Origin: Gemmatimonadaceae bacterium
GTDB lineage: Bacteria > Gemmatimonadota > Gemmatimonadetes > Gemmatimonadales > Gemmatimonadaceae
Length of the DNA stretch: 64,000 nt
Reading direction: 5' to 3'
Assembly (NCBI GenBank): GCA_031366985.1
Contig: JANLPE010000073.1
Coordinates: forward strand, 57,701-121,700
This document shows, piece after piece, positions 45,819 to 46,657 of the stretch. The position numbers were made by a program, and so were the translations under genes. How positions within the stretch are numbered: position 1 is the first letter of the stretch; each line of letters begins with the position of its first letter. The notes under the pieces were generated by a model that ran no database searches, was not told where the DNA came from, and worked only from the letters and a program-made list of their open reading frames with translations.

Positions 45819-46184
45819 TCACCAGTCCGTCGGCCGTACCTTCGGTGTCCTATAGTAGTACCACTCGCGCTCGGGCGTCCACCCTTCGTCGGTCGCGTTC
45901 TCTTCGCCCCACAGGCAATCGTTTGACACGAGAGTCGATGCACGGAACCGGTCATCGGCGGCGTCGAGCGTCGTGATCAGCGAGACGTCGGCCACGAGCT
46001 TCCGCAGCCACTTGGCGATGCGGTGCCGGAGATCGAGATCATTCAGAAAGTCATCGAACGTCAGCGTGTAGCCGCGCTCGACTTCCATAGCGATCTGCGC
46101 CCACCGCTCGATCAGCGTGCGCAGCGGAATCTGCGCCGACGCGTGATGGCCCGACTTGTCCTGATCGTTCACGTGATCGCTCAT
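45819..46184 (-). CDS. Hypothetical acidic/aromatic protein, putative immunity protein
   Basis: 121 aa, no signal peptide; WAQIAMEVERGY..TFDDFLNDLDLR...WYYYRTP; start overlaps the toxin-like gene stop (ATGA 46181-46184). Confidence 0.65.
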   Translation of the reverse strand: MSDHVNDQDKSGHHASAQIPLRTLIERWAQIAMEVERGYTLTFDDFLNDLDLRHRIAKWLRKLVADVSLITTLDAADDRFRASTLVSNDCLWGEENATDEGWTPEREWYYYRTPKVRPTDW

Positions 46185-46657
46185 GGTGACGGTGGCCGGT
46201 TGGCCTGACGACGGAAGTACCGCTCGCCGTCATTGGGTTTGAAGAACGTGCGAATCGTGCCATCGCGGTCGAACGCGAGGAACGCGCCGCTGCGTTTGTC
46301 GAAGCGCGAGACGACGCCGTCGTTCGGCCGCACGACTTCAAGGATGTCGCCACCGACCTGTTCGTCGCGCAACCTCTGCGCCATCGCGAGATACTGCGCT
46401 TCGCTGATGCCGCCGAACTCGCCGCCATGTTTCGCGAAGTGCTCGTCGAGCCGCTCGCGGTTGCGAAACCCTGTGCCGGATTCCGCGCGTGACGATCGAC
46501 GCGACGCGCCACTGACCACGGGTGCGTCGGGAGAAGCCGCCGCTGCTGCCGGCGACTGACTCGGCACCGTCGCGCGTGAATCGGCCGAGGTCGATCCTTT
46601 GCGCAGCACCGCCCACGCCAGCAGCAGCGCCACGATAAATGCGAGAGTCCGACGCAT
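46181..46657 (-). CDS. Signal/TM-anchored protein with RNase-toxin-like (BECR-type) C-terminal domain
   Basis: Hydrophobic N-terminus, Ser/Ala/Pro linker, then LDEHFAKHGGEFG...QYLAMA...FDKRSGAFLAFDRDGTIRTFFKP...YF. Confidence 0.65.
   Translation of the reverse strand: MRRTLAFIVALLLAWAVLRKGSTSADSRATVPSQSPAAAAASPDAPVVSGASRRSSRAESGTGFRNRERLDEHFAKHGGEFGGISEAQYLAMAQRLRDEQVGGDILEVVRPNDGVVSRFDKRSGAFLAFDRDGTIRTFFKPNDGERYFRRQANRPPSP

Follow-up and report, generated by a model that had tools for sequence, protein, structure and literature searches.

A conserved gene pair of Gemmatimonadaceae encoding an exported, colicin D-like RNase-toxin-like protein and a putative cytoplasmic immunity protein

Two overlapping genes were examined on the minus strand of a 64,000-nucleotide (nt) stretch of contig JANLPE010000073.1 from a Gemmatimonadaceae bacterium (assembly GCA_031366985.1), the whole of which is referred to here as the window. 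The first gene (46181..46657) encodes a 158-amino-acid (aa) protein that resembles an RNase toxin, being exported, colicin D-like and of the BECR fold, and the second (45819..46184) encodes a 121-aa acidic, cytoplasmic partner, which is a putative immunity protein or RNase inhibitor. Together, these genes probably form a toxin-immunity pair in the biochemical sense, that is, an exported RNase and its cognate cytoplasmic inhibitor; the RNase activity, its substrate, the physical binding of the two proteins and the biological use of the pair are what we infer from the comparisons presented below. An earlier note on this DNA had described a 158-aa open reading frame (ORF) with the motifs EHFAKHGGEFG and IRTFFKP. 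This ORF, reading MRRTLAFIVALLLAWAVL..., was present exactly as noted, and its reported ATGA overlap with a 121-aa ORF was found as tcat on the plus strand at 46181 to 46184, the TGA of the toxin-like ORF and the ATG of the partner sharing 4 nt on the minus strand (46181..46184). A word index detected 942 homologues of the toxin-like gene, nearly all of 145 to 180 aa, and searches of a representative library detected 3141 clusters at an E value of ≤1e-3, 632 of them at ≤1e-10. The partner gene had 1702 homologues, all unnamed. As homologues were numerous and gene order was kept across phyla, both ORFs were taken to be real genes and not chance ORFs. The DNA runs carrying the locus were from freshwater-sediment, sediment and soil metagenomes, and a run search found the locus in no RNA run.

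An AlphaFold2 (AF2) model of the toxin-like protein, built on an alignment of 37 sequences, had a mean predicted local distance difference test (pLDDT) value of 81.8 and bore out the proposed succession of a hydrophobic N terminus, a flexible linker and a C-terminal domain. The N terminus reads MRRTLAFIVALLLAWAVLRK and is followed by a Ser/Ala/Pro/Arg-rich stretch. Residues 1 to 20 (46598..46657, minus strand) consist of MRR, a 15-residue hydrophobic segment and RK, with a KD15 maximum of 2.69 and a predicted helix spanning residues 2 to 19, and would constitute a signal anchor or an uncleaved signal peptide; the window protein has no lipobox. Residues 21 to 62 (46472..46597, minus strand) form a disordered Ser/Ala/Pro/Arg-rich linker, or tether, with pLDDT values of 43 to 55 for residues 21 to 60. 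Both the length and the sequence of this linker vary across the family, in which its composition is 20% A, 17% P, 14% S and 10% T, and a "New_glue" label carried by two homologues was rejected as a sub-threshold, low-complexity match to the linker. The 96-aa BECR domain occupies residues 63 to 158 (46184..46471, minus strand) and was modelled with pLDDT values of 88 to 98 (residues 61 to 155). Its predicted topology comprises a pre-alpha helix (67 to 81), an alpha helix (86 to 98), four beta strands (105 to 109, 116 to 120, 125 to 129 and 135 to 139) and a C-terminal helix (145 to 152).

A phmmer search of Protein Data Bank (PDB) sequences detected a single relative of the toxin-like protein, 8ey4_A ("PT-VENN domain-containing protein"; E = 2.8e-4), which belongs to an entry described as a contact-dependent growth inhibition toxin-immunity protein complex from Escherichia coli O32:H37. 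A profile of 29 domain sequences matched residues 10 to 88 of this 88-residue chain with an E value of 1.7e-7, and the motifs H-x-x-K-H-G-x-E-F and R-T-x-F-K-P-x-x-G-x-x-Y-x-x-x-Q were common to the domain and the chain. The fold search against colicin D and CdiA tRNA-specific nucleases (tRNases) that the earlier note had proposed was run with Foldseek and returned 8ey4_A first (E = 4e-6, TM score of 0.83 and root mean square deviation of 1.8 Å over 85 columns). The next matches were the colicin D tRNase entries 1tfo, 1v74, 1tfk and 5znm, with E values of 7.5e-4 to 2.1e-3 and a probability of 1.00; target TM scores were 0.50 to 0.55 for the isolated tRNase-domain chains (1tfo_A, 1v74_A and 1tfk_A) and 0.18 to 0.19 for the 357-aa 5znm chains. 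These profile and Foldseek matches supported the earlier assignment of the HFxKHGxEF domain to a colicin D-like BECR fold. The profile comparison makes the domain a homologue of the CdiA toxin tip solved as 8EY4, and its predicted structure is that of the colicin D tRNase fold.

The "Colicin-like" BECR group is defined by a pre-alpha helix, an alpha helix and a four-stranded antiparallel sheet, and those of its members that have been characterised cleave specific tRNAs (10.64898/2026.08.28.747851); the window domain is most likely a tRNA-specific endonuclease. Candidate active site residues are H73, K76, H77, E80, S117, R136, T137 and K140. In alignments of 37 and 29 sequences, H73, K76, H77, E80, T137 and K140 were invariant or nearly so; across the family, H77, E80 and T137 were invariant, K140 was at least 90% conserved and S117 was invariant or nearly so. 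The 8EY4 toxin also has H73, K76, H77 and E80. The Tox-ColD signature consists of [KH]K, Hxx[ED], [ST] and [TS]xxK, and the essential residues of colicin D are K607, K608, H611, D614 and S677 (Zhang et al. 2012, PMC3482391). The window domain fits two parts of this signature, with H77-G-G-E80 as Hxx[ED] in the pre-alpha helix and T137-F-F-K140 as [TS]xxK on beta4. Compared to the [KH]K pair of colicin D, situated at -4 and -3 of the catalytic His, the window domain has H73 at -4, F74 at -3 and K76 at -1; a Lys directly before the His has been described in several members of the group (10.64898/2026.08.28.747851).

The association of the two genes was analysed in 86 loci, comprising the best 80 genome loci found with the toxin domain and six loci fetched earlier, from Gemmatimonadota, Acidobacteriota, Eisenbacteria, Planctomycetota, Alphaproteobacteria and Actinomycetota. 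In 85 of the 86 loci, a hidden Markov model (HMM) of the partner detected a homologue directly downstream in the same orientation, the lone exception being cut by the contig end, and the two families are therefore linked in other genomes. The 4-nt overlap was present in 47 of these 85 loci and a gap of ≤30 nt in 34 more (81 of 85 together); as read from the sequence, the ATGA overlap is a translational coupling of the pair. A reverse survey, starting from the partner in metagenome contigs, detected a toxin-like gene directly upstream in 54 of 74 informative loci. The other 20 partner genes had no adjacent toxin gene, although a toxin-like gene was located approximately 2 kb away in 3 of these. 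One Gemmatimonadaceae locus (L099, 1-2353; Ga0315906_10139932) had the thioesterase gene, an intact partner and the dehydrogenase gene that frame the pair in this family, while the toxin-like gene was reduced to approximately its first 30 codons by deletion of the RNase domain. Because the toxin gene never occurred without the partner and the partner often occurred without the toxin gene, the pattern was that expected of a toxin-antidote pair. In six loci (L117, L122, L123, L125, L150 and L155), partner homologues were found directly after an ORF of approximately 634 to 646 aa for a secreted peptidase-like protein, and no BECR gene lay close by. The homologues in the four loci that were checked were 136 aa long with an extra N-terminal helix region. 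The partners behind peptidase-like ORFs are orphan or re-partnered immunity-like genes.

The partner protein agreed with its earlier description as acidic, Trp/Tyr-rich and cytoplasmic, having an isoelectric point (pI) of 4.97, 22 Asp and Glu residues versus 15 Lys and Arg residues, 10 Trp and Tyr residues among its 121 residues and no hydrophobic segment. Median pI values were 9.6 for the toxin domain, which is basic, and 4.9 for the acidic partner. The AF2 model of the partner (pLDDT of 88.4, with a core above 94) predicted three long helices, arranged as a three-helix bundle, followed by a small strand/helix element, and conserved positions included W28, a D-D-Y-L-N-D-L-D-x-R motif, D77, W92-G, W108 and Y110. 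No Pfam or NCBIfam domain was detected in the partner, and a Pfam scan of 46 partner homologues produced scattered single weak matches only. There was no relative in the PDB by sequence profile and no significant Foldseek match in the PDB (best E value of 0.6) or BFVD; hence, no ImmD, barstar or CdiI relative was detected. The partner is a new family with a confidently predicted fold and no solved relative.

Occurrence of the domain as a toxin tip was investigated by a tblastn search of plasmids with the window domain. The domain was located at the extreme C terminus of a 2616-aa haemagglutinin-repeat protein of Rhizobium binae, of a 2221-aa Rhs protein of Bacillus mycoides, where it came right after the Rhs core, and of a 292-aa SAR2788-family putative toxin of Priestia megaterium (35% identity, E = 4e-9); a 67%-identical relative of the 8EY4 toxin was the end of a 3030-aa E. 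coli CdiA, behind the VENN motif. A small immunity-like gene came next on the same strand for three of these four tips (E. coli, Bacillus and Priestia but not Rhizobium). The claim that HFxKHGxEF domains form the C-terminal tips of polymorphic toxins, usually with an immunity gene behind them, was thus upheld for CdiA, Rhs and SAR2788-type proteins. No curated Pfam or NCBIfam model covered the tip in the homologues scanned. The immunity-like proteins of E. coli, Bacillus and Priestia were small, Cys-rich proteins with a CxxC...CxxC arrangement that were alike in sequence, with weak Cys_rich_CPCC matches for the two scanned (Bacillus and Priestia), but were unlike the window partner, which has no such motif and whose HMM matched none of them. 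The likeness of these three proteins suggested that one immunity family spans Gram-negative and Gram-positive hosts and that the window branch uses a second, unrelated family. A further expectation, that homologues of the second ORF would follow toxin tips elsewhere, therefore held for the 85 toxin-like loci described above but failed for the CdiA, Rhs and SAR2788 tips, which are followed by the CxxC...CxxC proteins instead. The genes for the latter lie at 1751-2020 of L171 (E. coli), 3290-3547 of L090 (B. mycoides) and 3294-3611 of L087 (P. megaterium). A Clostridium butyricum megaplasmid (L088, 2626-3258) encodes a 210-aa protein in which a treble-clef zinc ribbon is followed by a transmembrane helix, a linker and the same RNase-like tip (40% identity to the window domain).

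Localisation signals were surveyed in 252 family members with an intact domain. A hydrophobic N-terminal segment was detected in 216 and a lipobox-like motif in 25 of these proteins, and 4 of the remaining 11 also visibly had a hydrophobic helix, so that approximately 97% had a segment or a lipobox. A hydrophobic helix followed by an Ala/Pro/Ser/Thr linker was found in Gemmatimonadota, Planctomycetota and Alphaproteobacteria, lipoboxes in Actinomycetota and Blastocatellia, and a short signal peptide directly before the domain in the 114- to 117-aa proteins of Bryobacterales and Terriglobia (the longest ORF of one Terriglobia locus would give 130 aa). As the orthologues carry three kinds of Sec-type signal (anchor, cleavable-looking signal peptide and lipobox), the domain appears to be extracytoplasmic, and these signals argue strongly that it works outside the cytoplasm. 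Members of the partner family have no hydrophobic segment and should therefore stay in the cytoplasm. The window helix has basic residues at either end, and its orientation was deduced from the orthologues. Tat export, prompted by the N-terminal MRR, was rejected as a family feature because of a one-residue n-region, a very hydrophobic h-region and the lack of RR in orthologues. Library scans and the AF2 model confirmed that there was an anchor only and no Rhs, CdiA, type VI or type VII secretion system delivery domain. The description of this anchor-only form as unusual did not hold, since it is the dominant form of the subfamily, with hundreds of members, and Zhang et al. (2012, PMC3482391) had already recorded signal-peptide-only ("T2SS") forms in the colicin D clade.

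The genomic setting of the pair was conserved within the Gemmatimonadaceae, to which the window was assigned by its closest homologues and flanking genes. In Gemmatimonas groenlandica, the gene order was thioesterase, 159-aa homologue, 103-aa homologue and dehydrogenase; its toxin-like protein, partner and dehydrogenase were 56%, 42% and 78% identical, respectively, to those of the window. The frame of thioesterase, pair and dehydrogenase recurred across 33 Gemmatimonadaceae loci. An ATP-grasp/SET/ABC block lying upstream of the pair in the window was present in only some Gemmatimonadaceae loci and absent in other phyla, and a functional link of the pair to these ABC_membrane_3, ATP-grasp-SET and ATP-grasp genes was rejected on these grounds; no neighbour besides the partner was conserved across phyla. 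The recurring frame indicated that the pair is a vertically inherited, syntenic chromosomal module and that the upstream block is a variable insertion and not part of it. Comparison of Gemmatimonadaceae orthologues with the window detected identities of 78% for the dehydrogenase, 69% for the toxin domain and 47% for the partner. Across phyla, the toxin domain reached a plateau near 60 to 70% identity, while the partner fell to about 35%. The C-terminal domain was the constant part of the toxin-like protein (76% mean column identity) and the N terminus was variable, the opposite of what is seen in polymorphic toxins. The 64-kb window contained no further copy of the pair and no spare cassette, and a phage origin was rejected because no relative was found on viral contigs. 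In an Eisenbacteria metagenome-assembled genome (SJ457; L050 and L051), two near-identical copies of the pair were present on different contigs, reflecting either duplication or strain heterogeneity in the bin. Overall, these sequence comparisons indicated that the pair is a conserved module at a syntenic position in the chromosome rather than a mobile, polymorphic cassette.

Several known systems resemble this pair in part. The window domain is homologous to the 8EY4 CdiA C-terminal domain over the whole 80-aa core, with 28% identity, but the latter is the tip of a roughly 3000-aa CdiA, follows the VENN motif, depends on type V secretion and is neutralised by a Cys-rich CxxC...CxxC CdiI, whereas the window protein has 158 aa, consisting of a helix and a disordered linker before the domain, is attached to no CdiA, Rhs or other delivery protein and has an unrelated partner that is all-helical in the model. 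Colicin D and ImmD (1V74, 1TFO and 5ZNM) share with the pair the fold and topology, a basic toxin with an acidic inhibitor, a pre-alpha His that has a Lys beside it and is followed at +3 by an acidic residue, and a beta4 strand bearing a Lys and an alcohol residue. This similarity is structural only (TM scores of 0.5 to 0.55, 18 to 21% identity); moreover, the window protein has neither receptor-binding nor translocation domains, and the pair is chromosomal and syntenic while colicin D is plasmid-borne. Barnase and barstar are a secreted RNase and its intracellular inhibitor, and the likeness is that in both systems one genome encodes a basic, Sec-exported RNase from the wider BECR assemblage together with a small acidic inhibitor that stays in the cytoplasm. 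However, barnase belongs to another BECR clade, and the window pair differs in its helical partner and translationally coupled genes. SitA and SitI of myxobacteria (PMC5562445, PMC8546572) are similar in that the toxin has an N-terminal Sec/lipoprotein signal as its sole trafficking signal, ends in a nuclease-type domain and is paired with an immunity protein in the cytoplasm, but SitA is polymorphic, has an escort domain and requires TraA/B outer-membrane exchange; in contrast, a lipobox is absent from the window protein and present in only about 10% of its family, which is not polymorphic. The SAR2788 toxin of P. megaterium (NF038340) is also a short secreted protein with a signal peptide that ends in the same domain, but it has a 177-residue SAR2788 N-terminal carrier domain, is plasmid-borne beside an insertion sequence element and has a Cys-rich-type immunity protein. 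Polymorphic toxin systems in general (Zhang et al. 2012) likewise have the immunity gene directly downstream but differ in having variable C-terminal tips on a constant N-terminal part, cassettes and recombination.

These comparisons suggested how a toxin-immunity pair of this type might operate. The product of the first gene would be a colicin D-type (BECR fold) RNase domain carried across the cytoplasmic membrane by the N-terminal Sec-type signal or anchor, and the Ser/Ala/Pro tether would hold the exported domain flexibly. Translation of the second gene would be coupled to that of the first through the ATGA overlap, and the soluble, acidic partner would bind and block the basic RNase domain in the cytoplasm, shielding the producer both from RNase folded before export and from RNase arriving from neighbours. 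Orphan partners and tRNase ancestry favour a use in antagonism against partner-less bacteria, with delivery perhaps by vesicles, contact or lysis, a suggestion whose merits are nearly balanced and which we make tentatively. Several results weighed against an interpretation of the pair as toxin and immunity protein. The shift of the lysine, which is 3 residues before the His in colicin D and directly before it in the window, is the sole departure from the Tox-ColD signature; the toxin-like protein matched no Pfam or NCBIfam family at an E value of ≤1, with Pfam Colicin_D being silent; and a literature search found no publication on 8EY4 or on the O32:H37 CdiA. The distant C. butyricum homologue had no co-directional gene downstream and no obvious immunity partner. 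In 98% of 3627 pairwise comparisons, the partner was less conserved than the toxin domain, and a weapon shaped by an arms race would not typically have a non-polymorphic domain or keep to one syntenic site, as the pair does in Gemmatimonadaceae. Finally, the toxin-like protein has no receptor-binding or translocation domain, which leaves entry into a target cell unexplained.

The lack of an entry domain and the housekeeping-like conservation favour a barnase-barstar-like arrangement without antagonism, in which a tethered or exported RNase would serve the producer, for example in extracellular or periplasmic RNA degradation, with vesicle RNA cargo or in defence against incoming nucleic acid, and the partner would only prevent self-damage before export. 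The vertical, syntenic inheritance in Gemmatimonadaceae, the lack of a delivery domain, the single copy of the pair in the window, its absence from viral contigs and the greater conservation of the domain than of the partner are consistent with such an arrangement. We nevertheless consider it unlikely, as the characterised colicin-like BECR enzymes are specific tRNases and not bulk RNases (10.64898/2026.08.28.747851), the closest relatives are all interbacterial toxins and the persistence of partners without an adjacent RNase gene (20 of 74), and after deletion of the RNase domain in L099, would be hard to explain for a partner that protects only against the enzyme of its own cell. A quite improbable reading is that the pair is no conventional weapon but serves soil and sediment bacteria as a conserved RNase system of the envelope, with an undescribed physiological role. 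One form of this reading is export surveillance, whereby faltering Sec export would allow the unexported tRNase to outrun its inhibitor and halt translation, and another is a delivery of anchor-only toxins via vesicles or membrane contact without any known secretion apparatus; if true, either form would account for an inhibitor that drifts and a toxin domain that hardly changes from phylum to phylum.

A membrane-anchored type II toxin-antitoxin or abortive-infection module, with the RNase on the cytoplasmic face and the partner as a labile antitoxin, was considered because the hydrophobic segment of Gemmatimonadaceae proteins has Arg/Lys on both sides (MRR...RR/RK), so that the positive-inside rule alone leaves the orientation unfixed, and because BECR domains are used in toxin-antitoxin and defence systems. 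The short signal peptides of Acidobacteriota and the lipoboxes of Actinomycetota and Blastocatellia both mean export, however, and make a cytoplasm-facing module very unlikely, and the A/P/S/T tether is typical of extracytoplasmic proteins. Furthermore, type II systems (RelE-like) have a cytoplasmic toxin and an antitoxin with a DNA-binding domain that is usually encoded upstream, whereas the window partner is encoded downstream and has no DNA-binding domain or match to a DNA-binding fold, and neither protein of the pair matched a PADLOC defence-system model. The shifted first lysine of the colicin D motif would also fit a catalytically dead BECR scaffold that acts as a binding or structural envelope protein next to a partner with an unrelated role. 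Such a scaffold is barely credible, given that the putative catalytic residues are invariant or nearly so and that four of them are common to the 8EY4 toxin; the strict linkage to an acidic cytoplasmic protein is also best explained by inhibition.

The surroundings of the pair were examined for expression signals and additional genes. A Shine-Dalgarno-like run, GGGGGAAG (46661..46668, minus strand), read from the sequence, ends 3 nt 5' of the ATG of the toxin-like gene. A GC-rich hairpin, CCGGGUUUC...GAAACCCG (45775..45796), lies where the partner and PEP-CTERM genes converge, in a gap of 90 nt; the 94-nt spacer with this hairpin had a folding energy of -40.4 kcal/mol (z = -2.0) without a U-tract, which hints at a possible terminator. 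Consensus scans called no promoter or terminator near the module. Between the acyl-CoA thioesterase gene (50210-51229, plus strand) and the pair is the variable block (46707-50382, minus strand), which consists of genes for a 443-aa ATP-grasp protein (49051-50382), a 472-aa ATP-grasp-SET fusion (47594-49012) and a 296-aa ABC_membrane_3 protein without an ATPase domain (46707-47597) and in some loci includes a BNR_2 gene. The ATP-grasp part of the fusion is D-Ala-D-Ala ligase-like, and an ATP-grasp-SET fusion is unusual. On the other side, a gene for a 233-aa PEP-CTERM protein (45027-45728, plus strand) separates the partner from the dehydrogenase gene in the window; it looks like a lineage-specific insertion, since the dehydrogenase gene is close behind the partner (gaps of approximately 20 to 140 nt) in the other examined Gemmatimonadaceae loci with both genes. 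The 524-aa short-chain dehydrogenase (43287-44861, minus strand), which is 74 to 85% identical across Gemmatimonadaceae, has a long N-terminal extension with a CxxC...CxxC arrangement (HCYVCK...LCPTCAAF), and this extension is a conserved, unusual architecture for a short-chain dehydrogenase. Further along the minus strand (38445-42369), a gene for a DUF1552 (HXXSHH) protein adjoins one for a DUF1592/DUF1588/DUF1585/DUF1587/DUF1595 protein with a cytochrome c-like segment; these adjoining genes are the "planctomycete" PSD pair, carried in this case by a member of the Gemmatimonadaceae.

Neither the fold nor the toxin family is new, nor is the notion of toxins that carry only a signal peptide (PMC3482391); the novelty lies in the size and conservation of the anchor-only branch, its fixed chromosomal position in Gemmatimonadaceae and the partner family with its fold. 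A large unannotated branch, covered by no Pfam or NCBIfam model and comprising over 900 proteins in the word index and over 600 representative clusters (E value of ≤1e-10), is thereby added to the colicin D/CdiA-type RNase toxins, and a new immunity-like family of about 1700 unnamed proteins is defined. The pair is unlike textbook polymorphic toxins in occupying the same syntenic position in all examined Gemmatimonadaceae loci and in having a toxin domain that evolves more slowly than its antidote. This atypical behaviour makes the pair a tractable case for examining the purpose of Sec-only RNase toxins and the way in which they reach other cells, if they do so at all, and the carriers include the cultivable species G. 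groenlandica and Vineibacter terrae.

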